From contig CAYXSR010000002.1 of the NCBI GenBank assembly GCA_964467735.1, positions 51,885 through 115,884 on the forward strand: DNA of 64,000 bases. The letters run 5' to 3'. A model generated the notes under the pieces. That model saw only the letters and a list, made by a program, of their open reading frames with translations. It made no database searches and was not told the DNA's origin. Source of the DNA: an uncultured Pseudomonadales bacterium. GTDB lineage: Bacteria > Patescibacteriota > Microgenomatia > UBA1400 > CAYXSR01. The position numbers and the translations under genes are program-made. This document shows, in pieces, positions 14,973 through 49,976 of the stretch; position 1 is the stretch's first letter, and every line of letters starts with the position of its first letter.

Positions 14973-14998
14973 AGTCTAATTATTATTATATACAAAAG

Positions 14999-27060: not shown

Positions 27061-27742
27061 TTAATTCTTTCTTTTTTTTCTTTTTTTAGCAGCCACTGCC
27101 ATGACCATCATTGCCCAGCTTGGCTTAATTTTAGCTAAAAAGCCACTAATAAAGAAAGATAAATTAATCGTATTCCCTTCTATTTTTATATTTTTAAAAC
27201 CATTTGCTTTCAATTGTTCTTCGAGGTTTTTCACAGTGTAATATCTGATATGACCTACTGACGGGAACATTGTTAATTCTAACCATGCTTGAATATTCAA
27301 GAAAAGGATTTATACCAAACAACAACCTTCTTCCAATAGAGGTAACATTTGGGGTGGTTATTATTATTTTGCCGTTAGTTTTTAGCAACTGCCAACATTT
27401 CTGTAGAAGTGCATCTGTATCAAAAACATGTTCTAAAATATCTCCTAAAATAATTGCATCAAAACTGTTTTTGGGAAAAGTGATTTTTGATTTTTCAACA
27501 TCAATTCTCTTAACAATCAATCCCTTTTTCTTGGCTATTTTAAGCCTTTTTGAAGAAATATCTATTCCGTAAACTTTGTAACCTTGATTTAAAAGAATTT
27601 CTCCAATAAAACCAATGCCGCAGCCAACATCTAAATTTTTTTTTCCTCTACCAAAGTTTTCTAGTAAAAAAGTTATCTTCTCTGGATAATATCCATATCT
27701 TTCTAGTTTTTGATATTCCTTTTTATTATATACTTTATTCAT
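27061..27742 (-). pseudogene. Class I SAM-dependent methyltransferase, apparently interrupted by a single-nucleotide frameshift
   Basis: Two overlapping minus-strand ORFs in different frames (27194..27742 and 27061..27300) each carry part of one methyltransferase. The upstream ORF has LDVGCGIGFIGEIL...FDAIILGDILEHV...ITTPN...FGINPFLEYSS. The downstream ORF continues with ...FPSVGHIRYYTVKNLEEQLKANGF. The shift lies in the ~20-nt stretch gttagaattaacaatgttccc. Confidence 0.45.
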
Positions 27743-34560: not shown

Positions 34561-35268
34561 TCATTTATCTTTCAGTGAGTAAAAAAACCAACGATTCACT
34601 AAAAAGTAAGGCATAATGTTTGCAAGAAATATATCAATTTTTTCTAACAGAAAAGCATTTCTAGGTAGGATTGGGAAAAAGCCGCTTTTCTTAATATTCC
34701 TAAGTAAGAATTTATTATCATCAAGCATCCTTTTAATCCTATTCATTGTAAAAAAGTTAACATGATAATAGCCTAGGGTTGTCGTAATCTTCAATATCTT
34801 CCTTAAATAAATTAAAGGAAGATCAAAAAACAATTCGTAGCTACCATAACCATTGGGAATCGAGAGAATAAAAAGACCTTTTTCCTTTAGTAGTTGATGG
34901 GCTTTTCTCAAAATTATATCAGGATTGTTAACGTGTTCTAAAACTTCTGTTAATAAAACAACGTCATATTTTTTTGTGGTCTTAAGATTTTCAATTGAAC
35001 TTTTCATCAACTTAATATTTCTTCGTGGAATCCCCAGTTTATCTGTAAAAATTTTGAAGTTATTTAATAACTTAGCATTCATATCTACGCAAGTAACTTT
35101 ATATCCAAGCTTTAACAAAGGAAGAGAAACATGACCATACCCAGTTCCCAAGTCAATAATTTTTACCCTATCTTTATTCATTTTTACACAATGCTCTTCT
35201 GTCGGTTTAATAATGTTATCTAAATTATCTTTATTAAGAGGAGATAGAGAACTTTTTTTATTTTTCAT
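34561..35268 (-). CDS. Class I SAM-dependent methyltransferase
   Basis: IIDLGTGYGHVSLPLLKLGYKVTCVDMNAKLLNN...YDVVLLTEVLEHV. Confidence 0.65.
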   Translation of the reverse strand: MKNKKSSLSPLNKDNLDNIIKPTEEHCVKMNKDRVKIIDLGTGYGHVSLPLLKLGYKVTCVDMNAKLLNNFKIFTDKLGIPRRNIKLMKSSIENLKTTKKYDVVLLTEVLEHVNNPDIILRKAHQLLKEKGLFILSIPNGYGSYELFFDLPLIYLRKILKITTTLGYYHVNFFTMNRIKRMLDDNKFLLRNIKKSGFFPILPRNAFLLEKIDIFLANIMPYFLVNRWFFYSLKDK

Positions 35269-36502
35269 TTAAAAATTTTGCAAATTGTTTAATAATATAG
35301 TTTATCATTTTTTTATCTATCCCGGGAAAAACACCAATCCAAAAACCGTCATTCATAATTTTATCTGAATTTTTTAATCTTCCAATTTTTCTACATTTAA
35401 TATCTAAATAGGCCGGATGTTTTAAGATATTGCCGGCAAAAAGGTTTCGAGTGCCGATTTTTTTTGATTCTAAGTATTTAACTAATTCTAGGCGAGTAAA
35501 AGGAGCTTTATCCTTTAAAATAATCATAAAACCAAACCAACATGGATTACTATTCTTTTCTGGTTCTTGAAAAAAGAAATATTTGTTGTATTTTTCAAGT
35601 CCCTTTTTAAGCAAAAGATAGTTTTCCTGCCTTTTTCTAATAAATTGCGGCAGTTTATCCATTTGAGCTACTCCTATTGCCGCTTGAAAATCAGTCAACT
35701 TCAAGTTGTAACCTATTTGAGAATAAATATATTTATGGTCATATCCAAAAGGTAGCTTCCCCAATTGCCAACTAAACCTTTTGCCGCAACTATTGTCTTC
35801 TCCTGTACCACACCAACAATCTCTGCCCCAGTCCCGAAATTGCCTTAGGGAACGATAAATCAAAGGACTGCTGGTAACAACCGCACCTCCTTCTGCCATT
35901 GTTATTTGATGGGCGGGATAAAAACTGAAGGTCGCCAAATCGCCAAATCCACCAAGATATTTTCCTTTATATGTTGAACCTAAGGCGTCACAACAATCCT
36001 CAATTAGCCAGATATTATTTTTCCTGGCAATCTTTTTAATCTCTACCAAGTCAAAAGGATTTCCTAAAGTATGAGCAAGTATTATTAGTTTTGTTTTTTT
36101 AGTTATGGCCTTTTTCAAACCAGATATATTGATATTTAATGTTTTTAAATCAATATCTACAAAAACTGGTTTTAAGCCGTAAAGAAAACCAGGATTTACT
36201 GTTGTGGGGAAAGCAACGGCCGTTGTAATAAATTCATCGCCTTTTTTTAAAGCTCTTTTTTTAAATACTTTTGAAGTTAAAGCCGCTACTGCCAAAAGAT
36301 TTGCCGAAGAACCGGAATTGACAAGAACTGTATGTTTTATTGATAGAAAACTAGTAAATCTTTTTTCAAACTTTTTGGCAAATTCACCTTCAGTCCAATA
36401 CCCATCTTTTGCAACTTTAATAATATTGTTTATCTCTCTATGGTCAAATACTTTTCTGGTGGTAGGAATATAATCAATTCCCGGAAGAAATGAATCTTTC
36501 AT
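35258..36502 (-). CDS. ddhC: CDP-6-deoxy-D-xylo-4-hexulose 3-dehydrase (E1; PMP- and [2Fe-2S]-dependent, DegT/DnrJ/EryC1 fold)
   Basis: LVNSGSSANLLAVAAL (RfbH/AscC-type N-terminal motif). The active-site region SFYPAHQITMAEGG has His where true aminotransferases have the Schiff-base Lys. Cysteine spacing: EDCC...(57 residues, counted by hand)...RDCWCGTGEDNSCGK gives C-X57-C-X1-C-X7-C, the arrangement I recall as the E1 [2Fe-2S] motif. Confidence 0.8.
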   Translation of the reverse strand: MKDSFLPGIDYIPTTRKVFDHREINNIIKVAKDGYWTEGEFAKKFEKRFTSFLSIKHTVLVNSGSSANLLAVAALTSKVFKKRALKKGDEFITTAVAFPTTVNPGFLYGLKPVFVDIDLKTLNINISGLKKAITKKTKLIILAHTLGNPFDLVEIKKIARKNNIWLIEDCCDALGSTYKGKYLGGFGDLATFSFYPAHQITMAEGGAVVTSSPLIYRSLRQFRDWGRDCWCGTGEDNSCGKRFSWQLGKLPFGYDHKYIYSQIGYNLKLTDFQAAIGVAQMDKLPQFIRKRQENYLLLKKGLEKYNKYFFFQEPEKNSNPCWFGFMIILKDKAPFTRLELVKYLESKKIGTRNLFAGNILKHPAYLDIKCRKIGRLKNSDKIMNDGFWIGVFPGIDKKMINYIIKQFAKFLNEK

Positions 36503-36507
36503 TTGAT

Positions 36508-37551
36508 CTATTTTATATAAGAACGAATTGTTTTGAAAACTGCTTCTCTAGTAGAAGTAGTTGGACAGTAGTTAAAAGTTTTAATGAATTTAGTTATGTC
36601 GGGCTTAATTGCCTTGACCACGTTTTTATAATAATTAATTTCTTTTTGCTTAACAACCACTTTTATCTTCCGGCCATATTGCTTGGTAAACTCTTGGGCA
36701 ATTATTTTTGCGAATCCTCCAACTGAAACTAAATCTTTACCTCCTACATTATATACTTCGCCGCTTTTACCTTTTAGCAATATTTTTAAAAACATTATGG
36801 TAGCATCTTTAATATAAAGCATTACTCTTTTGATTGTGCTATCTCCATAAAGTTTTATATCTTCTCCTTTTAGTCCCTGACTAATAAAATCACTAAACAT
36901 TCTTCCATCTTCTAAGTTCATTCCCGGGCCAAAGGTGTGAAAAATTCTGGCAATCTTTATTGGAATTTTCTTTTCCCAAAAATAACTCATTCCTATTGTT
37001 TCAGCTACCTTCTTCGCTTCAAAATAGCAGGCTCTCGGATCTAAATGATTTGTTTTCCCTACATAATCTTCTTTAATTGCCTTATTTTTTGGTGGAGATC
37101 CGTATACCTCACCAGAGCTAAAAAAAAGCATGCTTTTTGTTTTAGAGCTACAAAGTTCCATCACATTAAACAAACCCAAGATGTTGGCACTTAAAGTATC
37201 AACCATGTTTTTGGTGAAAATTTTGGGCGCTGCTTTAGAGGCAGCATGAATAATATAATCAAATTCTATTTCGGTTTTAATCTTTTCCGAAATGTCTTGA
37301 TTGTAGTAGGTTATGTTTCTGTCGTTACCAAAGGCCTTTTTATCTCTTCTTATAACTAAATAAAGTTTTGTAGGCTTTTTTAAGATGTTTTTATTAGCAA
37401 ACAATAAGGTGTAAACAATATAAGAAGTCAGCATTCCAGCGGCACCGGTTATTAAAATATTGCTCCCTTCTAATTTTTTTAAATCTGTTCTTAATTCTTT
37501 AGCAATATTTTTAACATCTGCCCGAATTATCCGATTATCTCTGTAATTCAT
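36508..37551 (-). CDS. NAD(P)-dependent sugar-nucleotide epimerase/reductase (extended SDR)
   Basis: N-terminal ILITGAAGMLTSYIV Rossmann motif and catalytic YFEAK (YxxxK). Its position directly downstream of E1 suggests a CDP-4-keto-3,6-dideoxyhexose 4-reductase (abequose/paratose-synthase-like) or a YerF-like reductase. The specific role is inference. Confidence 0.6.
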   Translation of the reverse strand: MNYRDNRIIRADVKNIAKELRTDLKKLEGSNILITGAAGMLTSYIVYTLLFANKNILKKPTKLYLVIRRDKKAFGNDRNITYYNQDISEKIKTEIEFDYIIHAASKAAPKIFTKNMVDTLSANILGLFNVMELCSSKTKSMLFFSSGEVYGSPPKNKAIKEDYVGKTNHLDPRACYFEAKKVAETIGMSYFWEKKIPIKIARIFHTFGPGMNLEDGRMFSDFISQGLKGEDIKLYGDSTIKRVMLYIKDATIMFLKILLKGKSGEVYNVGGKDLVSVGGFAKIIAQEFTKQYGRKIKVVVKQKEINYYKNVVKAIKPDITKFIKTFNYCPTTSTREAVFKTIRSYIK

Positions 37552-37553
37552 AT

Positions 37554-38717
37554 TCAGTTCCTCAATGTTTCAAGAGCTGTTTTTATTTTCCGAAGTCCTT
37601 TATTTAAGTTCTCCATGGAAGTTGCGTATGAAATTCGCAAATAACCCTCTCCATACTTGCCAAATGAAGTGCCATCAAGCAATGCTACCCCAGCTTTTTC
37701 TAATAAATAGTCTGCCATCCACCTAGAACTCTTTTTAAAAGATTTAATATTCGGAAAAACATAAAAAGCGCCTTCTGGATTTTGACATTTTACCCCAGGA
37801 ATACTATTTAAATAATCAACTACAAATTGACGTCTCTTATTAAACTCTTTTACCATATTCCTAACACTTAACTGTGAACCCTCTAAAGCCGCCACCCCAG
37901 CGTATTGAGTAAAAGTGGCAGTACAACCAATTGTGTGAGTTAATAAATAATCAATTCTTTCCTCAAATACTTTTGGATAAACCATATAACCCAAGCGCCA
38001 ACCAGTCATAGAATAACTTTTAGAAAAGCCATCCACCAGAATTGTTCTTTTCTTCATTCCGCGACAGTTAATGATAGTCGTATGAGGCTTGCCAGAATAA
38101 ATAATCTTAGAGTAAATTTCATCGGACAAAATCCAACATTTAGTAAGTGAAGCTATTTTGCTCAAATCTTTTTTAGAAATTAGACCGCCGGTGGGATTGC
38201 TAGGAGAATTTATTATCACTAACTTAGTCTTTTTAGATAAAGATTTTTGGAAAACTTCCATATCAAAACTAAATCCTTTTTCTTCAAGTAAGGGCACTGG
38301 CTTTGGAATGCATCCAAAAAATTTAGTTAATGATAAATAAGTTGGAAAGCCAGGATCTGGATAAATTACCTCATCACCTTTTTCTAAAACTGCTGCCATG
38401 GCAAGAAAAATGCCGGCTTTTGTTGAGGGAGTGATGGCTATTCCATTTAGGGAAATTTTTATTTTTCTGGTTCGAGAAACTTCATTAGCAATCGTTTGTC
38501 TTAAGTCTTTTATTCCAAGGGGAGGAGTGTATTTCGTTAGACCTTTTTTTATCGATTTTATTGCTTCTTCGCAAATATAAGTCGGGGTCGGAAAATCTGG
38601 TTGGCCAATTTCAAGGTGAATTATTCTTTTACCTTTGGCTTCTAAAGCTTGAGCTTTACCCAAAACTGCATAAGCACCTTCAGGCTCGAGAACAGCGATC
38701 CTTTTGGCAATTTTCAT
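37554..38717 (-). CDS. PLP-dependent aminotransferase, class I/II (aspartate aminotransferase fold)
   Basis: IHLEIGQPDFPTP (fold-type I N-terminal motif) ... NSPSNPTGG ... GFSKSYSMTGWRLGY (PLP lysine region). Confidence 0.7.
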   Translation of the reverse strand: MKIAKRIAVLEPEGAYAVLGKAQALEAKGKRIIHLEIGQPDFPTPTYICEEAIKSIKKGLTKYTPPLGIKDLRQTIANEVSRTRKIKISLNGIAITPSTKAGIFLAMAAVLEKGDEVIYPDPGFPTYLSLTKFFGCIPKPVPLLEEKGFSFDMEVFQKSLSKKTKLVIINSPSNPTGGLISKKDLSKIASLTKCWILSDEIYSKIIYSGKPHTTIINCRGMKKRTILVDGFSKSYSMTGWRLGYMVYPKVFEERIDYLLTHTIGCTATFTQYAGVAALEGSQLSVRNMVKEFNKRRQFVVDYLNSIPGVKCQNPEGAFYVFPNIKSFKKSSRWMADYLLEKAGVALLDGTSFGKYGEGYLRISYATSMENLNKGLRKIKTALETLRN

Positions 38718-40531
38718 TCTTCCTCTACCGGAGCAACAAACATATTTTTTAAGAATTCTTCTCGCGGTAGAAAGGGAAACATGTCTTCTAAAGGCTTGGA
38801 CACCATTTTTCCTTCTTTGGTTTTCCTGGAACTAACTGTTGGAATAATGGGCTGTTCTTTGGGAGAAATTATTTCACAAATAACTGGGCCCTTTGTTTTA
38901 AAAGCATATTCTAGGGCTTTATCAAGCTCACTGTTTTTATTAGCTTTTACATAATTTATTCCATAAGCACGGGCTATTTTTTTACAACTTGGAAAAGAAA
39001 CACCTGAACTAGGACCTTCGCCAATAAGTCTTCCAAAATAATTCTTCTGGGTAAATCTTATAGAAAGATAGCCATCATTGTTAATTATAAATATTTTGAT
39101 CGGTAGCTTATGGTGAATAATAGTCTGCAGTTCTTGAATATTTTGCTGGAAAGAACCATCACCATTAATACAAATAACCCTACCTTTATTAGAAGCAAAA
39201 CTAGCCCCAATACTGGCTGGAAGACTGTAACCCATAGCTCCAAAACCACCCGAGGTAAGGTACCGCATGTTTTTTCTGACCTTTATGGTCTGGGGTCCAA
39301 CATAAAGAACTGATCCTGCATCAGTTATCACAATTTCATTACTCTTTAAGTAATTGGAAAGCTTGTCAAAAAAATAATAAATGTTAATTTCTTTTTTTAA
39401 TTTTCTATATTCCGGTAAAACTGGATTGTATTTTCTTCTCCATCCCACACATACCTTAAGCCATTTGCTGTTAAAATGATATTTTTCCTCATCTAGAGTC
39501 TTTAAGGTTTTTGTAAGAAAGTTATCAATGTCCGCTTGAATTAAAAGGTCTATTTTTACGGCTTTCTTCTGGTGAGAACATTTATCTATATCAACAACAA
39601 CAATTTTTGCTTCTCTGGCAAAAAAACTATATTCAAAGCCTATCTCTGATATTGGAAGGCTACTTCCTAACACTAGCAACAGATCAGAATTCTGAACTGC
39701 AAAGTTGCCTGCCCTTGTTCCCTTAATACCAATTCTTCCCGTATAGCTAGGATTGTTGGTAGTAATTACATCAACACCCAGATAAGTTGTAACTACGGGA
39801 ATATTGTATTTCTTAATAAACTTTCCAAAGTTATCAATCGCCCCAGAAGCTCTAACTCCTCCACCGGCTAAAATTACCGGTCTTTTTGCCTGCTTTAATA
39901 AATTTACAAAAGTTTTAATATCTTTAGCACTCGCTTTGCTTATTTTGTCTACTGGAGGAGTAAAACTGCGGAGACTTTTAGAATCAATATAGGCTCCTTG
40001 TACATCTAAAGGTACATCAAGCCAAACTGGTCCCGGTCTGCCTGATTTTGCTGCATATATTGCTCTTTGAAGATGATATTTAATGTCTTCTGGTTTATCA
40101 ATAAAAGCGGCGTATTTTGTAATTGCTTTCACCATCGGCATAATATTGATTTCCTGGACTCCACACTGCCTAATCCCCAGGATTTTCATATAACAAGTTG
40201 CCTCTACTCTTTTCGCTTGTCCGGAAATATAAAGGCTGGGGACCGAATCTACATAGGCACCAGCAGTTCCGGTAAAAGCATTAATTGCTCCAGGGCCGGT
40301 GGTAAAGTAACCAACACCTAAATTTCCGGTTACTTTTGCATATCCATCTACTGCCATAGCTGCTGCTTGTTCATGATGATAACAAACAGGTTTAATCTTT
40401 TTGTTTGCCGCCAATCCATCACTTAAATACATCATTCCGCCACCAGAAAGCAAATGAACATGTTTAACCCCACAGTTGGAAATGAATTGGGCAATAAAAT
40501 CGGAGACTCTGATCCTTTTTTTACTTACCAT
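38714..40531 (-). CDS. Thiamine-diphosphate-dependent enzyme, acetolactate synthase large-subunit family (YerE-like candidate)
   Basis: 605 aa. N-terminal VKHVHLLSGGGMMYLSDG (Pyr domain). The ThDP-binding fingerprint is INGDGSFQQNIQELQTIIHHKLPIKIFIINNDGY (GDG..~27..NN). The middle domain resembles the FAD-binding domain of ALS-like enzymes. Confidence 0.7.
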   Translation of the reverse strand: MVSKKRIRVSDFIAQFISNCGVKHVHLLSGGGMMYLSDGLAANKKIKPVCYHHEQAAAMAVDGYAKVTGNLGVGYFTTGPGAINAFTGTAGAYVDSVPSLYISGQAKRVEATCYMKILGIRQCGVQEINIMPMVKAITKYAAFIDKPEDIKYHLQRAIYAAKSGRPGPVWLDVPLDVQGAYIDSKSLRSFTPPVDKISKASAKDIKTFVNLLKQAKRPVILAGGGVRASGAIDNFGKFIKKYNIPVVTTYLGVDVITTNNPSYTGRIGIKGTRAGNFAVQNSDLLLVLGSSLPISEIGFEYSFFAREAKIVVVDIDKCSHQKKAVKIDLLIQADIDNFLTKTLKTLDEEKYHFNSKWLKVCVGWRRKYNPVLPEYRKLKKEINIYYFFDKLSNYLKSNEIVITDAGSVLYVGPQTIKVRKNMRYLTSGGFGAMGYSLPASIGASFASNKGRVICINGDGSFQQNIQELQTIIHHKLPIKIFIINNDGYLSIRFTQKNYFGRLIGEGPSSGVSFPSCKKIARAYGINYVKANKNSELDKALEYAFKTKGPVICEIISPKEQPIIPTVSSRKTKEGKMVSKPLEDMFPFLPREEFLKNMFVAPVEEE

Positions 40532-40566
40532 TTAAAAACCCAATTTAGTATAGAATATAATAATAT

Positions 40567-40595
40567 TTAATATCCGCTATCATTTCAAGTATCAA
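40567..40595 (-). promoter_or_regulatory. Putative sigma70-like promoter (-35 TTGATA / 17-bp spacer / -10 TATTAA) in the 115-bp gap upstream of the ThDP-enzyme gene
   Basis: Minus-strand reading ttgatacttgaaatgatagcggatattaa. This is the only sizeable intergenic gap within the long minus-strand gene array between 43426 and 17592. Confidence 0.2.
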
Positions 40596-40646
40596 AAATA
40601 AACTAGTCATTACTCCTACATTCTTCTCTGCTATGAATTGTGTATA

Positions 40647-41615
40647 CTAATTAGACTTTAATAAAAGATTGTTATACCAGTTAAAAACAATTGGAATTGT
40701 TTTATTAAAATCATAGGTAGGCCGCCAACCTAGGCTTTTCTTTATTTTCTGGTAATTCAAACTTTGGTAACTTATTTCATTTCTGGCAATATTAAGTATT
40801 TTATATTTAATTTTTTTCTTTAGTATTGTCTCTACTTTTTTTATTGCTTCCAAAACCGAATATGTCTCATCTGTAGAAATATTAAATACTTCTCCCATAG
40901 TTTTTTCTATGTTTTCAGCAATTAAAATATAGGCCTTAACCACATCTTTAATATAAATAAAATCACGGATACATTTACCATTACTTCTTATTTTAAGGAC
41001 TTTGTTTTTAATCAAAGACTCCATTATTCCTGGTATTAAACGATTGAAATTTAAATCACCGGGTCCATAGATATTGCCAAAACGAGTAATAGCAACAGAT
41101 AAACCATATGTTTTGTAATAAGTATGAGCCACAAGGTCGGCACAAGATTTGGAAACTTCATAAGGATGGTCTCCTTTTAAAGGATCTGTTTCTTTGTATA
41201 CTTTATCCAGTTTTCCATAAGCTTTATCCGAAGAAGCAACAATTATTCCCTTTACCTTCCTATATAGTCTTGCTGTTTCCAAAATATTGACTGTTCCCAT
41301 TATATTAGTTTCCAAAGTTTCCAAAGGATTATAATAAGCAGTTTCTACAATTGGTTGAGCAGCCAGATGAAAGATAAATTCAATTTCATACTTGGTAACA
41401 ATATCAAAAACTCTTTTAAAGTTTTTTATATCACAATCCACCATTGTTGTCTTTTTATAGAGTTTTTCTTGGGTAAAAAAAGAGTGAGGATCAAAGCTTC
41501 TTTGAGGAACAACCACTCTTGCCTTTTTTTCAAGCAAGTCTTTTACTAAGTGACTGCCTACCAAACCACAGCCACCGGTCACTAGAATATTTTTACCAAC
41601 AAGTTTCATTTCCAA
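40647..41615 (-). CDS. ddhB: CDP-glucose 4,6-dehydratase
   Basis: Colinear matches to the Salmonella RfbG sequence as I remember it. FHLAAQPIVETAYYNPLETLETNIMGTVNILE parallels FHMAAQPLVRLSYEQPIETYSTNVMGTVHLLE. SSDKAYG parallels SDKCYDN. HPYEVSKSCADLV parallels DPYSNSKGCAELV. NRLIPGIMES parallels DRLIPDILRS. N-terminal VTGGCGLVGSHL Rossmann motif. Confidence 0.8.
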   Translation of the reverse strand: MEMKLVGKNILVTGGCGLVGSHLVKDLLEKKARVVVPQRSFDPHSFFTQEKLYKKTTMVDCDIKNFKRVFDIVTKYEIEFIFHLAAQPIVETAYYNPLETLETNIMGTVNILETARLYRKVKGIIVASSDKAYGKLDKVYKETDPLKGDHPYEVSKSCADLVAHTYYKTYGLSVAITRFGNIYGPGDLNFNRLIPGIMESLIKNKVLKIRSNGKCIRDFIYIKDVVKAYILIAENIEKTMGEVFNISTDETYSVLEAIKKVETILKKKIKYKILNIARNEISYQSLNYQKIKKSLGWRPTYDFNKTIPIVFNWYNNLLLKSN

Positions 41616-42385
41616 ACTTTCCAGGGCGGGATTCCTTTATTCCAAAGTTTATTTAAACCTTCAACTTCTTTATAAGTATCCATACAATACCAAAATTTTT
41701 CGTGCTTATATAATGATAATTGTCTTTCTTTTGCTAAACGAGACAAAGCTGGGTGTTCTGTTTCTCCAGGTTTAAGATATTTAAAAAATCTTTTATCAAA
41801 AACCATAAAACCACCATTAACGTAATCGGAAAGAGTAGGTTTCTCCTTGAATGCTTTAACCAAGTTGTTTTTATCAACTTTAATTAAACCATATTTCACT
41901 ATCGGATTGACGCCGGTAATCGTCCCAATTATTTTTTGTTTTTTATGAAAAGCAACGAGCTTTTTAATATTAATATCAGAAACACCATCACCATAAGTAA
42001 CCATAAAATATTTATCCTTGTCGGGAATGTATTTCTGACAAAGCAAAATTCTTTCTCCTGGTAAAGTTTCTAATCCAGTATCAACAAAGGTTATTTTAAA
42101 ATTATCAACACTATTTCTATTTTCCAAAAAGAATTTCTTTTTAAAAGTTTCTGTATCTAGAGTAAAATCACAAGTAAATGCTTTTTGATTAATAAAAAAG
42201 TCTTTTATATATTCTGCTTTATAGCCCAAAGCCAGAATAAACTCGTTAAAGCCATAATGGGAATAAATTTTCATTATATGCCATAAAATAGGTCGACCCC
42301 CAACTAAAACCATTGGTTTTGGCTTGAATTCGGTTTCTTCTTTTAGGCGAGTACCTGTGCCACCGCATAGTATTATGGTTTTCAT
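41606..42385 (-). CDS. ddhA: Glucose-1-phosphate cytidylyltransferase
   Basis: Near full-length colinearity with RfbF/DdhA as recalled. [41 protein letters not shown] parallels [65 protein letters not shown] and [12 protein letters not shown] match YGDGV, INGGFFVLN, FWQPMDTLRD and LWEKGKAPWKTW. 259 aa versus 257 aa. Confidence 0.9.
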   Translation of the reverse strand: [259 protein letters not shown]

Positions 42386-42397
42386 TTTATCAATAGT

Positions 42398-43426
42398 CTA
42401 AGTTATTAACTTATAGGCTCTCTCAATTTTATCTAAGTTTCTAATCCTTGAGATTGTGTCGTTAGTGTAATGTCGTAATTTTCTTATAAATTTCCAAAAA
42501 GAACTCGGAAAAATAAAAGCAAAGGCAAATAAAATATAAAATTTAAAGTTTTTTTTCAATCGTGGTTCTAGTATTACTAATCTTTGATTAAATTTGACTA
42601 AATTTTCATTGTTTGAGTATAACTTAATTACAGGCTGCAAAATAATATAGTTTTTAAAATAGTTCCATTTATAATTTGCTAACCTTGAGGAGGGTATTAG
42701 GTTTAATACATAATCCATAAGTTGTTCAAACATTAATCTTCCATCTTTTCTTGGAAAGTAGTGGCTTGATATTTCTCCTTGTGACCATGTAATAACCATA
42801 TAGTAATTCGCAATAAAAAAGGCGCCTCCTTCTTTAACTGTAGGATAAATAATCTTCATCCAAGGAATATCGGGAAATTCAAGAACTAAGTTTCCAATAC
42901 TTTTTTTGTTTTTAAAAACCAATCCCGCAATATGACCAACGGCAACTCTAGAAAGAAAAGCAAGTATTTTTTCCGATGATGCTCCTCTTTTTATCTGGAT
43001 ATTCCTTTCATATTTAATTATACTCTTTCTTAATCCCTCTCCTGCAATTTTTTTTTCTATCAAATTAAGGCGCACAAAATCCACCTTTTTTTCAATAATT
43101 ATCTTCCTAACTTTAGTCAATGTATCCTTAAAAATAATTAAATCGTCATCACCCATACTAAAAATATATTTACCTTTCGCTCTATTAAATGCCTTTTTAT
43201 AATTTCCTTCCGCTCCAAAATTCTTACTATTTTTAAAATATCTTATTCTTTTATCCTTAAAACTTTTTACAATTTGTTTTGTTTTATCAGTTGAATGATT
43301 ATCGGAAATTACAATTTCAAAATCTTTAAAATCTTGGAGAAGAATACTATTAATGGCTTTTTTTAAATTTTGGTAGCGATTATAAGTAGGAATAACAATG
43401 GAAAAAAAAGGTTGGTTCATTTTCAT
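42398..43426 (-). CDS. Glycosyltransferase family 2 (GT-A)
   Basis: FSIVIPTYNRYQNLKKAINSILLQDFKDFEIVISDNHSTDKT...MGDDDLII. This is the first gene of the long minus-strand array. Confidence 0.7.
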   Translation of the reverse strand: MKMNQPFFSIVIPTYNRYQNLKKAINSILLQDFKDFEIVISDNHSTDKTKQIVKSFKDKRIRYFKNSKNFGAEGNYKKAFNRAKGKYIFSMGDDDLIIFKDTLTKVRKIIIEKKVDFVRLNLIEKKIAGEGLRKSIIKYERNIQIKRGASSEKILAFLSRVAVGHIAGLVFKNKKSIGNLVLEFPDIPWMKIIYPTVKEGGAFFIANYYMVITWSQGEISSHYFPRKDGRLMFEQLMDYVLNLIPSSRLANYKWNYFKNYIILQPVIKLYSNNENLVKFNQRLVILEPRLKKNFKFYILFAFAFIFPSSFWKFIRKLRHYTNDTISRIRNLDKIERAYKLIT

Positions 43427-43600: not shown

Positions 43601-44455
43601 ATGAATAATTTGAATCCTCTGGTTTCAGTTATAATTCCAGCCAAAAATTCTGGTAAACATTTAAACAAATGCCTTTCGTGTATTAAAAACCAAACATATA
43701 AAAGAATTGAAATAATTGTTGTTGATAGTAATTCTCAAGACAATACCAAAGAAATTTGCCAAAAATATAAAACGAAGATCTTTCATTTCTCCAATCCAAA
43801 ACTTTTAGGAAAGTTTGATGCTACTTTTAAAAGAAATTTAGGCGCTCAAAAAGCTAAAGGAAAATATGTATACTACGTAGATGCTGATATGAGATTGATA
43901 AAAAATGTCATCTCACAGGCTGTTTTCGCTTGTGAAAAAGAAGATTATGATGCAGTCATTGTTAAAGAAATCGTCGTTGGCAGTGGCTTCTTGACTAAAT
44001 GCCGACACTTAGAACAGGAATGTTACTGGGGAGATGATAACATAGAAGCACCACGTTTTTTCAAAAAGAACGTCTGGAAAAAATTAAAAGGCCTTGATAG
44101 TAAACTAGGAGCGGGCTGCGATGATTGGGATCTATATCAAAGATTTCTCCAGCAGGGATACAAAGCAAAAAGAATAAAGGCTCCTCTTTATCATAACGAA
44201 GGAAAAATAAATCTAAAAGATTTAATTAAAAAAAGTTTTATGTACGGAAAAGATGTTACGAAATTTATTAAAAAGAGTCCCAAAAAAAGTTTTATGTACT
44301 TTTTTCCAATAAGACCTGCTTATATACGTCATTGGAAGCTATTCGTTAAAAATCCTCATTTGGGGTTCGGTCTTATTTTAATAAGGACAATTGAGTATAG
44401 TGGCGGTGCAATTGGAATAATTTATAACAAAATCTCACAAACTAAAATTAAATGA
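43601..44455 (+). CDS. Glycosyltransferase family 2 (GT-A)
   Basis: VSVIIPAKNSGKHLNKCLSCIKNQTYKRIEIIVVDSNSQDNTKEI...YYVDADMRL. Confidence 0.7.
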   Translation: MNNLNPLVSVIIPAKNSGKHLNKCLSCIKNQTYKRIEIIVVDSNSQDNTKEICQKYKTKIFHFSNPKLLGKFDATFKRNLGAQKAKGKYVYYVDADMRLIKNVISQAVFACEKEDYDAVIVKEIVVGSGFLTKCRHLEQECYWGDDNIEAPRFFKKNVWKKLKGLDSKLGAGCDDWDLYQRFLQQGYKAKRIKAPLYHNEGKINLKDLIKKSFMYGKDVTKFIKKSPKKSFMYFFPIRPAYIRHWKLFVKNPHLGFGLILIRTIEYSGGAIGIIYNKISQTKIK

Positions 44456-45408
44456 AAAAATATTGGCAGAAAAAAAAGATTCTTATAACCGGAGCCAATG
44501 GCTTCATTGGTTCATCCGTTTGTCAGGAATTATTAAATATCGGAGCAAAAGTAACTGCCCTTGTCAGTCCTAATTCATCGCTCAACAATCTTAAAGGTTT
44601 AAATAATAAAATTAAGCTTCTTCGCAAAGATCTCATAAATGACGTTTTTGAAATTCAGGAAAAAATTGTTTTTCATCTAGCTGCTCTAGATGGCGGTCAG
44701 AAATTTAAAAAACAGCATGGTCCACAAATTCTTCAACAAAACTTAATCATGACTTCCAAGATGATTGAACTTTCGCAAAAAGCAAACGTAGAAAAGTTTA
44801 TTTTTTTTAGTTCAGCGGAAGTTTACCAAGGGAAAAAGAGAGCTCAAAAAAGAAAAATTAAAGAAACCGACTTTAATATTGATGAAGCGTTATTGGCAAA
44901 TAACAATCTATATATGTGGTCAAAGATTATTGGAGAAAGTATTTGCTTGCAGTCTAAGTTGAAAACAATTATAATTCGTCCGGCTAACATCTATGGCGAA
45001 AGAGATTCTGTCCAAAAAGAAAGACTTATTCCTTTACTCCTAGATAATATAAAAAATAATAATAAAGAAGTTGTCCTTACTGGTGATGGGTCACCCACTC
45101 GCTCCTTTATGTATATTGAAGACTTTGTGAAAAATTTATTGGCATTAACAGGAAAACTAAAAAAGGGTATTTATAATATCGCCGGTGAAAATCCAATTTC
45201 TCTTAAAAAATTTGTCAATCTCTTTCACAATATTTGTGGAATTAATATAAAATTCATCTCTAAGACAAAGCAAAATCCCTCTGATTATTTTGTTTTAAAC
45301 AATAGTAAGGTCAAAAAAGTCGTTTCCAACTGGCATGATCAGAGTTATAAAAAAGTTATAAAAAAATTAATCGCCAATATTAATGATAATTGCAATCACT
45401 GGGCCTGA
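44452..45408 (+). CDS. NAD-dependent sugar-nucleotide epimerase/dehydratase (extended SDR)
   Basis: ILITGANGFIGSSVCQELLNIGAKVTALV Rossmann motif. YMWSK is a YxxxK-type catalytic dyad. Confidence 0.6.
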   Translation: MKKYWQKKKILITGANGFIGSSVCQELLNIGAKVTALVSPNSSLNNLKGLNNKIKLLRKDLINDVFEIQEKIVFHLAALDGGQKFKKQHGPQILQQNLIMTSKMIELSQKANVEKFIFFSSAEVYQGKKRAQKRKIKETDFNIDEALLANNNLYMWSKIIGESICLQSKLKTIIIRPANIYGERDSVQKERLIPLLLDNIKNNNKEVVLTGDGSPTRSFMYIEDFVKNLLALTGKLKKGIYNIAGENPISLKKFVNLFHNICGINIKFISKTKQNPSDYFVLNNSKVKKVVSNWHDQSYKKVIKKLIANINDNCNHWA

Positions 45409-46219
45409 TGGTTTCATTGGCTCTCAACTCATCAAAAAACTTAACACTAGTAAGAAAGATAACATTTGTCACTTTGATAGAAAGGTTTTTTCTCTTTTTT
45501 CTATATCTTCTCTTAAGAATTTCGTTAAAAACAAAGATGTTATTATTCATCTTGCGGGCATTAATCTATCTCAGGATCCAAATGAATACTACTTAGTAAA
45601 CACCTTGGGAACATTAAATTTACTGGAAGCAATTCGGCTTTTTGGAAAAAAGAACTGCCATTTTATTCTCAGCTCTTCATTTGCCATCTACCAGATAAAT
45701 GAAAATAATACAAAGCTTAAAGAAGACAGTTCCCCACTTAAACCAAGAAACCATTATGGAATGTCCAAACTTTTAGCAGAAACTATTGCTAGTCAGTATA
45801 AAGACACAATAGGTAAAATTACTATCCTTAGGATTGCTAATGCCTATGGCAAAAATGACAAACTTATATCTTCACTAATAAATAATCTTATAAAAGGAAA
45901 CAAATTTAAGCTTGATTATCATCCAAAACAAATACGCGATTACATTTATATCGATGATATTGTTAGGGCAATTATTAATACAATCAGATATCAAAAGAAA
46001 AAATTCTCAATCCTTAATGTTTGCAGCGGTAAAAAGACTACAGTCAGTGATTTCTTTAACGAAGTTGAAATGAAACTCAACAAAAAAGGACTAATTAAAT
46101 ATAATAATAAAAGAAAAGAAAATGGATACTGGGTGGGCAATAACAAAAAAGCCTTGAAGGAAATAAAGTTTACTTATATAACTGATTACAAAACAGGAAT
46201 TGCAAAAACATTAAAATGA
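45383..46219 (+). CDS. NAD-dependent sugar-nucleotide epimerase/reductase (SDR family)
   Basis: MIIAITGPDGFIGSQLIKKL Rossmann N-terminus and YGMSK catalytic motif. It overlaps the upstream SDR gene by 26 nt. Confidence 0.55.
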   Translation: MIIAITGPDGFIGSQLIKKLNTSKKDNICHFDRKVFSLFSISSLKNFVKNKDVIIHLAGINLSQDPNEYYLVNTLGTLNLLEAIRLFGKKNCHFILSSSFAIYQINENNTKLKEDSSPLKPRNHYGMSKLLAETIASQYKDTIGKITILRIANAYGKNDKLISSLINNLIKGNKFKLDYHPKQIRDYIYIDDIVRAIINTIRYQKKKFSILNVCSGKKTTVSDFFNEVEMKLNKKGLIKYNNKRKENGYWVGNNKKALKEIKFTYITDYKTGIAKTLK

Positions 46220-47631
46220 TCAAAAAACAGAAAATAATTATAATCGGCGCTGGTACTGCAGGAAAAGAATTATTAAAAGAAATTATCAAGTATAAATACA
46301 AAGAGTTTGCAGTGATCGGCTTTCTAGATGACGATAAAAGAAAAATAGGGACTACAATAAATAAAGTCCCAGTTTTAGATAATATTGACCAGCTTGAAAA
46401 CATTGTTCACAAGGGCAAAATCAAAAGGATATTCATTGCTCTTCCTTCAATCAAAAGCACAGTTATAAATAATATTTTCAGACGTTGCATAATGATTGGT
46501 GTAAATTGCCAAATTGTCCCCAGAATTAGAGAAATAATTGAAGGAAAAGTCGATCTAAAAAGGGTTCGAAATGTTGAAATAGAAGATTTATTGGGAAGAT
46601 CTGTTAGAAAACCGGATCTTAAAAGCATTTTTTCCTTGATAAAAGGACAAACAGTATTGGTGACTGGAGCAGCTGGTTCAATCGGTTCAGAATTATGTCG
46701 CCAGATCGCTTCCTTTAAACCAAAAAAAATTGTCATGTTTGATTGGTGGGAAAATGGACTTTATCAGATGGGAATTGAGTTTCGTGAAACATATCCAACA
46801 ATTGAATGTCTTTTAGTCATCGGCAATATTCAAGATAAAAAAAGAGTAGAAACAATTTTTTCACAATATAAACCATCCTTGATTTTTCATGCAGCTGCTT
46901 TTAAACATGTTCCTCTTATGGAACAACACCCTAGTGAGGCGATTAAAAATAACATCCTTGGAACAAAAATAGTTGCTGATGCATCAAGAAAATACAGGAT
47001 TAAAAAATTTATTTTTGTTTCAACAGATAAGGCAGCTGATCCTAAAAATATTATGGGAATTACTAAATCAATAAGTGAAAGTTTAATTTCATCTTACAAT
47101 CGAGAAACGAAAACAAAATTTATTGCTGTAAGATTTGGAAATGTTTTAGACAGCAATGGAAGTGTACTCCCTTTGTTCCGGAAACAAATATCTAATGGTG
47201 GACCAATCACTATAACCGATGTTAGAATGACCCGCTATTTTATGACTATTCCTGAAGCTGCCCAATTAATACTTAAAGCAGCTACTATTGGCAAAGGCAA
47301 GGAAATTTTTATACTGGATATGGGTAAACCAATAAAAATCATTGATTTGGCAAAAAATTTAATTCTTTTATCCGGTTTTATTCCCAACAAAGACATAAAG
47401 ATAGAAATTGTTGGTAAAAGACCAGGTGAAAAAATTCATGAAAAACTTATTTCAAACAAAGAAAAATTAATAAAAACCGAGTTTAAAGAAATAATGATGG
47501 TCGAAAACAAACAGACTAATAAAGTAAAGTTAAACTCTTTTATTAAAAAACTACTAGAAGCTGCTCTATCAGGAGACCAAAACAAAACACTCAACTTACT
47601 TAAGCAGTTTCCTAAAAACAAATTAATCTAG
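46216..47631 (+). CDS. Nucleotide-sugar (UDP-HexNAc) 4,6-dehydratase, CapD/PglF/WbpM family, soluble form
   Basis: N-terminal KIIIIGAGTAGKELLKEI (CoA-binding-like domain), then VLVTGAAGSIGSELCRQI and FVSTDKAADPKNIMGITK (Polysacc_synt_2-type dehydratase core). There are no N-terminal TM helices. Confidence 0.7.
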   Translation: MIKKQKIIIIGAGTAGKELLKEIIKYKYKEFAVIGFLDDDKRKIGTTINKVPVLDNIDQLENIVHKGKIKRIFIALPSIKSTVINNIFRRCIMIGVNCQIVPRIREIIEGKVDLKRVRNVEIEDLLGRSVRKPDLKSIFSLIKGQTVLVTGAAGSIGSELCRQIASFKPKKIVMFDWWENGLYQMGIEFRETYPTIECLLVIGNIQDKKRVETIFSQYKPSLIFHAAAFKHVPLMEQHPSEAIKNNILGTKIVADASRKYRIKKFIFVSTDKAADPKNIMGITKSISESLISSYNRETKTKFIAVRFGNVLDSNGSVLPLFRKQISNGGPITITDVRMTRYFMTIPEAAQLILKAATIGKGKEIFILDMGKPIKIIDLAKNLILLSGFIPNKDIKIEIVGKRPGEKIHEKLISNKEKLIKTEFKEIMMVENKQTNKVKLNSFIKKLLEAALSGDQNKTLNLLKQFPKNKLI

Positions 47632-49487: not shown

Positions 49488-49976
49488 TCAAAATCCCATT
49501 TGTTTCTTGATCTTAATGTGTTTCTGATAATGCTCGGGTGGAACTAATTCCTTTAATTTAAATCTTTTGCTTATTCTATATAAAGTCGAATAAGATTTGA
49601 ATAGGATATTATTGGTATAAACATCAACTGTTAAATGAAAAATCAATGAGAGACTAATGGCTAATGCCACAATTTTCATTTCTTTTTCGTCAGATAGTAA
49701 AAAAATTAAAAGACTTACTACTGAATATTCCCAGCCATGAAAAGGGACAATAATCTTATCACTGATTAGAAAATGATAACCCTTTAAAAAATATTTAAAA
49801 TTTATCACTGAACCCATGGCGAAAACATAATCAAATAGATGATCAATGTCAATAAAAACCCCCACTATTACCGCTGGAATAAAACTAAGTATAAGATTTT
49901 TATATATTAAATAAACAATAAAACCTGCAAGCAAACTAAAGAAAAGATGAATGAAAAGATGGAGAAATAATCTCAT
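49488..49976 (-). CDS. Small polytopic membrane protein (possibly DUF457-type membrane-bound metal-dependent hydrolase)
   Basis: 162 aa, about 4 TM helices, His-rich short motifs (IDHLFDY, HGWEY, HLTVDVY). It has a 4-nt overlap with the upstream radical SAM gene. The family assignment is weak. Confidence 0.3.
   Translation of the reverse strand: MRLFLHLFIHLFFSLLAGFIVYLIYKNLILSFIPAVIVGVFIDIDHLFDYVFAMGSVINFKYFLKGYHFLISDKIIVPFHGWEYSVVSLLIFLLSDEKEMKIVALAISLSLIFHLTVDVYTNNILFKSYSTLYRISKRFKLKELVPPEHYQKHIKIKKQMGF

Follow-up and report, generated by a model that had tools for sequence, protein, structure and literature searches.

The window analysed here is a 64,000-nucleotide stretch of DNA, probably from a candidate-phyla bacterium (Patescibacteria), and is filled by a large surface-glycan locus. 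The ORF listing places six minus-strand genes at 35258-42385, all running in one direction and overlapping or nearly abutting. Both the ORFs and the family assignments agree with the six-gene set that an earlier note on this DNA had described. These genes and their neighbors on either side are:

42398..43426, minus strand: GT2 glycosyltransferase (PF00535, 102.5 bits); candidate sugar transferase, uncertain
41606..42385, minus strand: glucose-1-phosphate cytidylyltransferase (RfbF/DdhA-like), 259 aa (TIGR02623, 1tzf)
40647..41615, minus strand: NDP-hexose 4,6-dehydratase (DdhB/RfbG-like), 322 aa (TIGR02622; CDP specificity from context)
38714..40531, minus strand: YerE/JanthE-family ThDP-dependent carboligase (predicted C-branching enzyme), 605 aa (TPP domains, 8rph)
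37554..38717, minus strand: class I aminotransferase (AT), AspAT-like, subgroup I-gamma-type, 387 aa (Aminotran_1_2)
36508..37551, minus strand: extended SDR, NAD(P)-dependent, 347 aa; proposed branch C-1' ketoreductase (YerF position) (PF01370)
35258..36502, minus strand: CDP-4-keto-6-deoxyglucose 3-dehydrase E1 (DdhC/RfbH/AscC), 414 aa (NF011936, 3bcx)
34561..35268, minus strand: SAM-dependent methyltransferase, 235 aa; possible tailoring enzyme, pathway membership uncertain (Methyltransf_23/11)

Neighboring cassette genes overlap by up to 11 nt or stand up to 115 nt apart, an operon-like arrangement. The cytidylyltransferase gene overlaps the dehydratase gene by 10 nt, the AT start overlaps the stop of the ThDP gene by 4 nt, and the methyltransferase gene begins 11 nt before the end of the E1 gene. 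Methyltransferase genes also follow the cassette in three related loci (L086, L090 and L092). The GT2 gene lies immediately upstream of rfbF, and in 26 related loci the ThDP cassette likewise has GT2 genes at its flanks.

The cytidylyltransferase, the 4,6-dehydratase and E1 had all been called strong assignments, and they proved unequal. The cytidylyltransferase matched TIGR02623 over its full length with 262.7 bits, just below the cutoff of 300.25, but its best PDB relative by far is the Salmonella glucose-1-phosphate cytidylyltransferase 1tzf (190 bits; second match, 68). The dehydratase is weaker than stated: its top NCBIfam match, TIGR02622 (CDP_4_6_dhtase), stopped at 211.9 bits, short of the 278.45 cutoff. 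Among PDB structures, dTDP-glucose dehydratases came out a little ahead (142 and 138 bits, versus 134 and 127 bits for CDP-glucose dehydratases), so that CDP specificity rests on context. Orthologues of this dehydratase (41-53% identity) adjoin rfbF in 16 related loci. E1, in contrast, passed the equivalog cutoff of NF011936 RfbH (621.6 bits; cutoff, 423) and matched the Yersinia E1 structures 3bcx/3bb8 with 487 bits. A script count in the translation gave the motif Cys171-X57-Cys229-X-Cys231-X7-Cys239 together with YPAH198Q, and 47 of the 48 cassette E1s with at least 45% identity show this Cys4/His pattern too. Judged by its four-Cys motif and His, the 414-aa protein is a true E1 3-dehydrase, as the earlier note had held when it placed a real E1 in a CDP-3,6-dideoxyhexose module.

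With four E3-like proteins of related loci as queries, tblastn revealed no E3/AscD-like gene in the window, as had been noted before, and Pfam gave no match to a Fer2/FNR-type reductase among window ORFs of at least 120 aa. With no E3 in the window, the E1 step would depend on a reductant encoded outside it. If E1 were inactive, the acceptor would be a 6-deoxy ketosugar, not a 3,6-dideoxy one. E3 is present in four related loci, all of which carry an AT; the AT is therefore no substitute for E3.

The 605-aa protein contains TPP_enzyme_N, _M and _C domains, and its motifs HHE54Q and GDG457-459...NN484-485 are invariant across its family. The protein resembles AHAS (IlvB/IlvG/IlvI) in its three-domain ThDP fold, its catalytic Glu and its GDG...NN motif, AHAS models top its NCBIfam list by score, and some relatives are annotated publicly as 'acetolactate synthase large subunit'. 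It is nevertheless scarcely credible that the protein is a true acetolactate/acetohydroxyacid synthase, or some other ThDP enzyme acting on small molecules (for example a sulfoacetaldehyde acetyltransferase), unrelated to the sugar genes. The protein falls far short of every AHAS and Xsc equivalog cutoff (366 bits versus 538 for TIGR00118; 236 versus 620), bona fide plasmid ilvB genes are only 30-34% identical, and the window enzyme has a conserved C-terminal tail (PLED..P), found also in JanthE and missing from AHAS. Pfam detected neither ilvC nor an ilvN-like gene among window ORFs of at least 120 aa. The earlier statement that both are missing thus stands for ilvC, and for ilvN within that size range, a smaller ilvN-size gene being possible. 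Unlike AHAS, the family is also tied to nucleotide-sugar genes: of the 42 loci with long flanks, 37 lie within CDP-sugar clusters.

In the PDB, the ThDP enzyme scored highest with JanthE of Janthinobacterium sp. HH01 (8rph, 415 bits; also 8rpi/8rpj), followed by PpYerE (5ahk, 265 bits) and plant AHAS (~248 bits). JanthE, the nearest solved structure at ~35% identity, nests inside the ThDP family in 100 of 100 bootstraps, and in 45 of 50 when six more members are added; there it groups with loci that have neither AT nor aldolase. It is a verified ketone-accepting YerE-like carboligase, joining aldehydes to ketones from a broad range of 2-oxoacid donors that includes pyruvate. One difference is that JanthE reads CDG at the site of the canonical GDG of the window enzyme. 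According to a review, ketones were not accepted in vitro by some enzymes predicted to be YerE-like (RhopE, SpirE), which we counted against a branching role. On sequence grounds we place the ThDP enzyme with the YerE-like carboligases that branch sugars and not with the acetolactate synthases, as the earlier note had proposed. Its relatives occur in at least 572 species-level genomes.

Gene context was surveyed in 84 loci of the ThDP family from many bacterial and archaeal phyla, 42 of them with long flanks. An E1-family gene is present in 62 of the 84 and rfbF in 54; among the long-flank loci each is present in 37. An AT gene occurs in 46 loci, every time within 300 nt of the ThDP gene. A HpcH/HpaI aldolase occurs in 17, of which 13 also have a BphI/DmpG aldolase and/or acetaldehyde dehydrogenase; in these loci the HpaI-type and BphI/BphJ-type genes lie directly upstream of the ThDP gene. 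AT and aldolase were never found together (0/84), and 21 loci have neither, presumably using a common metabolite as donor. The donor slot is thus filled by either an AT or aldolases, in a mutually exclusive manner; this pattern, the conserved gene linkage and the family assignments are direct observations. Since the AT never accompanies the 2-oxoacid-forming aldolases of other loci, its most likely role is to supply the side-chain 2-oxoacid donor, acting before the branching step.

The AT matched Aminotran_1_2 with 217.8 bits, reached no NCBIfam equivalog cutoff, and had the archaeal AspAT/AroAT structures 2z61 and 1dju as best PDB matches. It retains the PLP lysine and, in Arg361, the arginine that binds the carboxylate; Lys100 and Lys233, like Arg361, are invariant, and the protein looks like an ordinary AspAT-like alpha-amino-acid/2-oxoacid transaminase. 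The window-type AT groups with generic non-cassette AspAT-like proteins in 96 of 100 bootstraps, to the exclusion of the main cassette type; two unrelated AT lineages have been recruited independently to the slot beside the ThDP gene. Among relatives with at least 57% identity, the ThDP gene adjoins in 9 of 9 loci examined, as against about 3-5 of 80 at 36-52% identity.

These data bear on a classical yersiniose A pathway, in which the ThDP enzyme uses pyruvate, the SDR is YerF, and the AT is a housekeeping AspAT/AlaAT that just happens to lie in the operon, or tops up pyruvate from alanine. The gene set matches the YerE/YerF logic, pyruvate is among the donors accepted by JanthE, the window AT is ~50% identical to generic AspAT-like proteins with which it has Lys100 in common, and the 21 loci lacking both AT and aldolase presumably draw on a common metabolite. 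We nonetheless consider this pathway unlikely. AT-ThDP adjacency recurs in 46 loci across phyla with two independent origins, the linkage of the window-type AT is complete and reaches a 4-nt overlap here, the AT alternates with aldolases making non-standard donors, and a fermenting cell needs no dedicated enzyme for pyruvate. With the AT coupled to the ThDP gene, pyruvate is probably not the donor here; ErwE is an enzyme known to reject it.

The earlier note had suggested a 4-amino derivative, and the AT might more generally aminate the C-4 or branch C-1' ketone to give a 4-amino or amino-branched dideoxy sugar. Transaminases that modify acetyl branches in secondary-metabolite sugars are described in the literature, and ketones without a carboxylate are substrates for some enzymes of the class I/II fold, histidinol-phosphate aminotransferase among them. 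Sugar ketone aminotransferases, however, belong to the DegT family, whereas this AT is AspAT-like with its PLP lysine, Arg361 and Lys100 conserved; amination at C-4 would use up the very ketone that the ThDP enzyme needs; and exclusivity with donor-forming aldolases is unexpected for a tailoring enzyme. The SDR that would use the branch ketone is also retained in most AT loci. We therefore regard amination as improbable and set the suggestion aside.

The SDR matched PF01370 (Epimerase) with 113 bits, and its best PDB match was UDP-glucuronate decarboxylase (142 bits). Orthologues (34-49% identity) are found immediately downstream of the ThDP gene in AT-type loci (L007, L038, L043 and L045) and aldolase-type loci (L071 and L074) alike. 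In 30 of 41 AT loci the ThDP/AT block is followed by an SDR gene, and 11 of 15 aldolase loci have one in the corresponding place; the AT is therefore no replacement for ketoreduction.

The identity of the donor may be hinted at by neighboring genes. The nearest relative of the window locus (L008; ThDP 67% and AT 71% identity) encodes a fused aspartokinase-homoserine dehydrogenase and ASADH divergently upstream of its GT2-ThDP-AT-SDR genes. L085 carries aspartokinase, homoserine dehydrogenase and ASADH, and L086 aspartokinase and ASADH. Aspartokinase/ASADH genes thus occur in three Patescibacteria loci of the window's AT lineage, two of them with homoserine dehydrogenase. None of these genes was found in the remaining ThDP-family loci or in 80 generic AT loci, and Pfam scans of window ORFs of at least 120 aa detected none of the three, nor an aldolase. 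They are present in just 3 of 10 window-type loci and in no main-type locus, Patescibacteria ones included. This co-occurrence points to a homoserine-derived donor, and ErwE and MyGE take 4-hydroxy-2-oxobutanoate as donor in vitro (PMC9306805, Table 1). We tentatively infer L-homoserine, converted to 4-hydroxy-2-oxobutanoate, as the specific donor source, with somewhat less than even confidence; if so, the branch would be 4-C-(1,3-dihydroxypropyl). With the Lys100 of its generic AspAT-like relatives, the AT could prefer Asp or Glu.

Together, we propose that the six-gene operon probably makes a CDP-activated 4-C-branched 3,6-dideoxyhexose for a surface glycan, with the AT supplying the donor. 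The cytidylyltransferase would convert Glc-1-P and CTP to CDP-glucose (step 1) and the 4,6-dehydratase CDP-glucose to CDP-4-keto-6-deoxyglucose (step 2). E1 (PMP/[2Fe-2S]) would strip the 3-hydroxyl to give CDP-4-keto-3,6-dideoxyglucose, with electrons from a reductase encoded outside the window (step 3). The class I AT would convert an amino acid to its 2-oxoacid (step 4), which the YerE/JanthE-family enzyme would decarboxylate, adding the acyl anion to the C-4 ketone to form a tertiary alcohol with an acyl branch (step 5). Reduction of the branch ketone by the SDR would leave a 1-hydroxyalkyl group (step 6), and the adjoining methyltransferase and GT2 may tailor and transfer the sugar (step 7). 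The chemistry of steps 3-6 is our inference, and so, most of all, is the choice of amino acid.

Compared with yersiniose A biosynthesis in Yersinia pseudotuberculosis O:VI (DdhA-DdhB-E1/E3, YerE, YerF), the window has the same module from CDP-glucose to CDP-4-keto-3,6-dideoxyglucose, with an E1 that matches the Yersinia enzyme at 487 bits, and both have an ALS-like ThDP carboligase and a reductase placed for the acyl branch. The window differs in lacking E3/AscD, in its dedicated class I AT translationally coupled to the ThDP gene, and in its host, a probable Patescibacterium rather than an enterobacterium. The yersiniose-like pathway of the earlier note holds for the CDP-3,6-dideoxyhexose module and the YerE-like enzyme. 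Yersiniose A itself is probably not what the operon makes.

The same modular logic is seen in the erwiniose, caryophyllose and gastriose clusters (ErwE/ErwI/ErwJ, MMAR_2331/2332, MyGE/MygI; Steitz et al. 2022, PMC9306805). There, genes for a deoxy-ketosugar are joined by one whose product makes a non-standard 2-oxoacid as donor, by a YerE-like enzyme and by a reductase that uses NAD(P)H. Our sequence comparison of the ThDP enzyme covered JanthE, PpYerE and AHAS, and likeness to YpYerE, ErwE and MMAR_2332 rests on this gene-set logic. In the ErwE, MMAR_2332 and MyGE clusters, aldolases make the functionalised 2-oxoacid donor (PMC9306805), and aldolase-type loci of the window's ThDP family reproduce these architectures; in the window, the donor-forming gene is instead a transaminase. 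In that paper, transamination figures only as an in-vitro route to 2-oxoacids and is not described as a natural cluster component. The side chain here seems to come from an amino acid via a dedicated AT, which would make this a widespread, so far uncharacterised variant of the Yersinia yersiniose pathway.

The window has a G+C content of ~30% and forms a single continuous glycan-assembly region. All ORFs of 120 aa or longer were annotated, either by a Pfam scan or through a matching contig, and no housekeeping genes were seen among them. The region encodes more than 20 GT2 and GT4 glycosyltransferases, six SAM methyltransferases, two hexapeptide acetyltransferases and four PMT_2-type membrane transferases, together with the features listed here.

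Features of the window (nucleotide positions; strand in brackets)
604-1224, Bac_transf priming transferase
8072-11149 (-), ORF of 1025 aa, no Pfam match at E <= 1e-5
17592-19649 (-), ORF of 685 aa, no Pfam match at E <= 1e-5
20019-23492 (-), ORF of 1157 aa, no Pfam match at E <= 1e-5
23497-26415 (-), ORF of 972 aa, no Pfam match at E <= 1e-5
27194-27742 (-), methyltransferase ORF of 182 aa with an odd tail devoid of conserved-looking sequence, then a 137-nt gap
35258-42385 (-), six genes head to tail, overlapping by up to 11 nt or separated by up to 115 nt
44452-47631 (+), second nucleotide-sugar module: two extended SDRs and a PglF-like Polysacc_synt_2 4,6-dehydratase
49973-51451 (-), B12-binding radical SAM enzyme
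53271-54563, flippase-like gene

The four very large ORFs without a family may encode glycan polymerases or surface proteins; the N-terminal part of the 972-aa product has many hydrophobic, membrane-like stretches. The 182-aa methyltransferase ORF may be truncated or frameshifted, and the PglF-like 4,6-dehydratase carries an N-terminal CoA_binding_3/PglD_N region. The B12-radical SAM protein may be a C-methylating tailoring enzyme; its family also occurs near ThDP cassettes in seven related loci from other genomes or metagenomes, which are given L-numbers (for example L001, 17319-18797, and L092, 925-2424). An Rfam scan found no RNA families in the window, and three window proteins were singletons in an exact cluster look-up.

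The gene set described in the earlier note is confirmed. Among the six operon products, E1 is securely assigned as CDP-4-keto-6-deoxy-D-glucose 3-dehydrase (DdhC/RfbH/AscC). It scored 621.6 bits on the RfbH equivalog NF011936 (cutoff 423) and 487 bits against the Yersinia pseudotuberculosis E1 structures (3bcx alignment). A script count placed the cysteines at Cys171-X57-Cys229-X-Cys231-X7-Cys239, with His198 (YPAHQ) replacing the PLP lysine, and all four Cys and the His are kept in 47 of 48 cassette-linked E1 homologues (at least 45% identity). The cytidylyltransferase matches TIGR02623 end to end with 262.7 bits against a cutoff of 300.25; in the PDB its best match is the Salmonella glucose-1-phosphate cytidylyltransferase (1tzf, 190 bits), the next scoring 68, with no other strong relative. 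The dehydratase is clearly assigned to the NDP-hexose 4,6-dehydratases. Its TIGR02622 score of 211.9 bits lies under the CDP-specific cutoff of 278.45, and dTDP-type structures score marginally above CDP-type ones in the PDB; we infer its CDP specificity from a 10-nt overlap with the rfbF-like gene.

The earlier note had found the window to lack E3, the AscD/DdhD reductase partner of E1, and we confirmed this: no E3/AscD gene was detected in the window by tblastn with four E3-like queries from related proteobacterial loci (zero matches) or from Pfam domains. Since E3-like genes lie near the cassette in only 4 of 84 related loci, absence of E3 is the rule in the ThDP family.

E3/AscD-like genes in related loci (ferredoxin and FNR motifs)
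L036, 3586-4605
L042, 3772-4803
L049, 4593-5594
L060, 4440-5543

These four genes encode a plant-type ferredoxin motif, lie just upstream of rfbF and occur only in proteobacterial AT-type loci, in which a class I aminotransferase (AT) gene adjoins the ThDP gene. The other related loci had no gene for an E1 reductant nearby. A DegT-family gene stands beside the AT-ThDP pair in L019, L030, L033 and L058 (Saccharibacteria/Patescibacteria) and in L032 and L057 (Nitrosopelagicus); because its product has the active-site His without the four-Cys motif, it is ColD-like and not E1-like. Such loci may carry out deoxygenation without an iron-sulfur cluster or E3, or may use another acceptor sugar.

The ThDP enzyme has three TPP domains and the catalytic HHEQ glutamate (Glu54), and residues H52-H53-E54, G457-D458-G459 and N484-N485 (GDG-X(24-27)-NN motif) are invariant in a 27-sequence alignment. 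Such an enzyme might be the large subunit of acetohydroxyacid synthase (AHAS; IlvB), and it does score 366.6 bits on the AHAS equivalog TIGR00118. We rejected this assignment, as the cutoff of that model is 538.35 and neither ilvC nor an ilvN-like gene was found in Pfam scans of the window ORFs of at least 120 aa. All AHAS (including PRK), Xsc and related equivalog models remained far under cutoff. A tblastn search of plasmids with the ThDP enzyme, of use as a calibration only, gave only genuine ilvB genes, at 30–34% identity.

In the PDB, the enzyme matched JanthE (8rph), a verified ketone-accepting YerE-like carboligase reportedly first described by Lanza et al. in 2024, with 415 bits, followed by 5ahk (265 bits) and plant AHAS (~248 bits). 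A structure of PpYerE exists, and we take 5ahk to be this protein. The alignment with JanthE extends through a C-terminal tail, VSxPLEDxxP, which AHAS does not have. A neighbour-joining analysis of 87 sequences placed JanthE inside the ThDP family of the window in 100/100 bootstraps and left PpYerE and AHAS outside; after addition of six further family members the nesting was recovered in 45/50. Since JanthE nests within the family and AHAS lies outside, this clustering test favours a sugar-branching enzyme. Thus, the suggestion of the earlier note that this is a YerE-like enzyme, rather than one of the acetolactate or sulfoacetaldehyde type, is borne out by the tree and by the AHAS and Xsc scores. 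By the available tests, which compared it with JanthE, PpYerE and AHAS, the ThDP enzyme belongs to the YerE-like class. It is predicted to decarboxylate a 2-oxoacid and to form a tertiary alcohol by adding the resulting unit to a ketone, and its gene shares an operon in the window with the CDP-4-keto-3,6-dideoxyhexose genes.

ThDP homologues at 56–68% identity are plentiful in metagenomes, and the closest named relatives, annotated as 'Patescibacteria group bacterium', share 68% identity in the ThDP enzyme and 71% in the AT. The C-terminal motif of the family was present in at least 572 species-representative genomes. For a census of neighbourhoods we took the best 80 loci of these genomes and four metagenome-contig loci, called ORFs and clustered those no more than 8 kb from the ThDP gene. 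Bacterial hosts among the best 80 loci were Patescibacteria, Omnitrophota, many Proteobacteria, Campylobacterota, Planctomycetota, Verrucomicrobiota, Lentisphaerae and Firmicutes; archaeal hosts were Methanoperedens, Methanosarcinales, Methanobacteriaceae, Nitrosopelagicus, Bathyarchaeia and Altiarchaeales. The most recurrent neighbours in the 84 loci were extended SDRs (76), the E1 family (62), rfbF (54) and class I AT (46), with GT2s also recurring. On the aldolase side, Pfam-confirmed neighbours were HpcH/HpaI aldolase (17), BphI/DmpG-type aldolase (12) and acetaldehyde dehydrogenase (12). Where the flanks were long, E1 and rfbF were each present in 37 of 42 loci. One locus from Magasanikiibacteriota (L048) has two paralogous family ThDP genes, at 9998-11797 and 13303-15093, and the 1.5 kb that separate them hold a second rfbF-like gene.

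In all 46 AT loci, no more than 300 nt separate the AT gene from the ThDP gene. Aldolases occupy the same place, the HpaI-type gene typically beginning ~750 nt before the ThDP gene starts. The 84 loci divide into 46 with an AT, 17 with an aldolase and 21 with neither; AT and aldolase were never found together. In the erwiniose, caryophyllose and gastriose systems, such aldolases produce a functionalised 2-oxoacid that the YerE-like enzyme attaches, and in characterised YerE-like systems the branch is set by the donor (PMC9306805).

Judged from sequence, the window AT is an ordinary AspAT-like α-amino-acid transaminase that keeps the PLP lysine and the α-carboxylate arginine. It aligns to 2z61 and 1dju and reached the cutoff of no specific equivalog; K233 (SKS), R361, N174, D199, Y202 and Lys100 are invariant in 36 members of the AT subfamily. 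Lys100 presumably matches the distal-carboxylate-binding lysine of Thermus AspAT.

The gene content of the loci also bears on what the AT does not replace. An SDR directly follows the ThDP/AT block in 30/41 AT loci and the corresponding block in 11/15 aldolase loci. The window SDR is of the extended type with a YxxxK motif, and its orthologues (34–49% identity) come immediately after the ThDP gene in loci of both types. Its position and fold make it a candidate YerF-type NAD(P)H-dependent reductase of the 4-C-acyl group. Because an SDR is kept in most loci of both types, the AT is no substitute for ketoreduction. We also considered that the AT might regenerate PMP for E1 in place of E3, and rejected this: the four loci that contain E3 are all AT-type, so the AT is no substitute for E3, and a free-standing transaminase has no access to a cofactor that sits bound in a different enzyme.

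The AT is best read as the source of the 2-oxoacid donor, which it would form from an amino acid. The class I AT would convert an amino acid to a 2-oxoacid, the ThDP enzyme would couple the unit derived from it to CDP-4-keto-3,6-dideoxyglucose, and the branched product would then be reduced; we consider this scheme probable. The earlier note had proposed a branched-sugar pathway with a possible extension to a 4-amino derivative. YerE-like branching stands; the 4-amino reading does not, since the AT is AspAT-like and shares the slot of the aldolases.

Two AT lineages occur beside the ThDP gene. The main type comprises 44 enzymes whose genes precede the ThDP gene; their clade is tight (mean pairwise identity 59%, bootstrap 100), with Asn at the Lys100 column. 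The window type comprises the window AT and those of L008, L014, L085-L087, L090-L092 and L173, and in the genome loci (the window, L008 and L014) the order is ThDP then AT. Orthology between the window AT and the main cassette AT was rejected: the two share ~40% identity, and window-type ATs group with generic AspAT-like proteins not encoded beside ThDP genes, to the exclusion of the main type, in 96/100 bootstraps. Relatives of the window-type AT at 57% identity or more adjoin a family ThDP gene in 9/9 cases examined. As a negative control we took 80 relatives at 36–52% identity from a metagenome scan with generic patterns; among the matches listed, only ~3–5 of the 80 were ThDP-adjacent. 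Residues Y16, Q39, A94, S98, M153 and H261 set the window type apart from its generic relatives. The window ThDP enzyme nests among partners of main-type ATs (L003, L009), which suggests that one AT displaced the other in this lineage.

An indication of which amino acid might be used came from L008, the closest relative of the window locus, which contains the following operon.

Aspartate-pathway operon of L008
3442-8998 (-), 423-aa protein without Pfam match, 418-aa class I AT, 661-aa fused aspartokinase-homoserine dehydrogenase (AK-HSDH), aspartate-semialdehyde dehydrogenase (ASADH)

This operon is divergent from, and upstream of, the GT2-ThDP-AT-SDR genes, and its AT is a second class I AT. 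AK, HSDH and ASADH also lie beside the AT-ThDP pair in L085 (Roizmanbacteria), AK and ASADH are present in L086 (WWE3), and L091 has an 86-aa AA_kinase remnant. AK, ASADH and HSDH genes were found in no other ThDP-family locus, nor did any of the 80 generic AT loci among the matches listed contain them; scans of window ORFs of at least 120 aa revealed none in the window. Aspartate-pathway genes thus occur in 3/10 window-type loci and 0 main-type loci. That all three positives of ~90 loci fall within the 10 window-type loci corresponds to p ~0.001 (hand calculation). Because candidate-phyla bacteria are, to our knowledge, generally without amino-acid biosynthesis, a glycan locus that contains a homoserine pathway stands out.

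Transamination of homoserine would yield 4-hydroxy-2-oxobutanoate, which ErwE and MyGE take as donor in vitro (PMC9306805, Table 1). The product of this route would be CDP-4-C-(1,3-dihydroxypropyl)-3,6-dideoxyhexose. On the strength of these neighbourhoods we put forward homoserine as the source of the donor only tentatively, as a possibility somewhat short of even.

The window system would work like the YerE and ErwE branched-sugar pathways, and the aldolase-type related loci share the architecture of the ErwE and MMAR_2332 clusters. It differs from the YerE/ErwE pathways in that its donor supplier is a transaminase, whereas theirs is an aldolase or no dedicated enzyme, in lacking E3, and in its phylogenetic setting. 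Branched-chain sugars of the YerE type are known from a handful of lipopolysaccharides, and in every characterised case known to us the side chain comes from pyruvate or an aldolase product. Our analysis indicates a third donor route, transamination of an amino acid. Literature searches pairing YerE with homoserine, or yersiniose with an aminotransferase, gave no relevant results; more than 200 YerE-like clusters have been catalogued in silico, reportedly by Krug et al. in 2024, and AT-type clusters may be among them. Transamination is mentioned only as a laboratory route to donors in PMC9306805. The AT arrangement is the commonest in the 84 loci (46, against 17 with aldolases). It has at least two origins, and its hosts include Patescibacteria, Omnitrophota, Proteobacteria, Campylobacterota, methanogens and Nitrosopelagicus.

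We speculate that Patescibacteria, and more broadly many bacteria and archaea that are uncultivated, may display a so far undescribed class of surface C-branched 3,6-dideoxy sugars whose side chain comes from an amino acid. In the lineage of the window this would be L-homoserine, converted via 4-hydroxy-2-oxobutanoate into a 4-C-(1,3-dihydroxypropyl) branch; some otherwise auxotrophic hosts would keep an aspartate-to-homoserine pathway in the glycan locus solely for this purpose, and two unrelated AT lineages would have been recruited convergently. In a still more exotic version, the donor would be aspartate semialdehyde or another amino-acid-derived carbonyl, giving a branch that bears an amino acid. 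Taken whole, this proposal is rather unlikely to hold. If an amino-acid-derived donor is right, it would predict new sugar structures on organisms with almost unknown envelopes, provide a ready-made transaminase-carboligase pair for biocatalysis of chiral tertiary alcohols, and account for the retention of AK, ASADH and HSDH in the glycan loci of some biosynthesis-poor candidate-phyla genomes.
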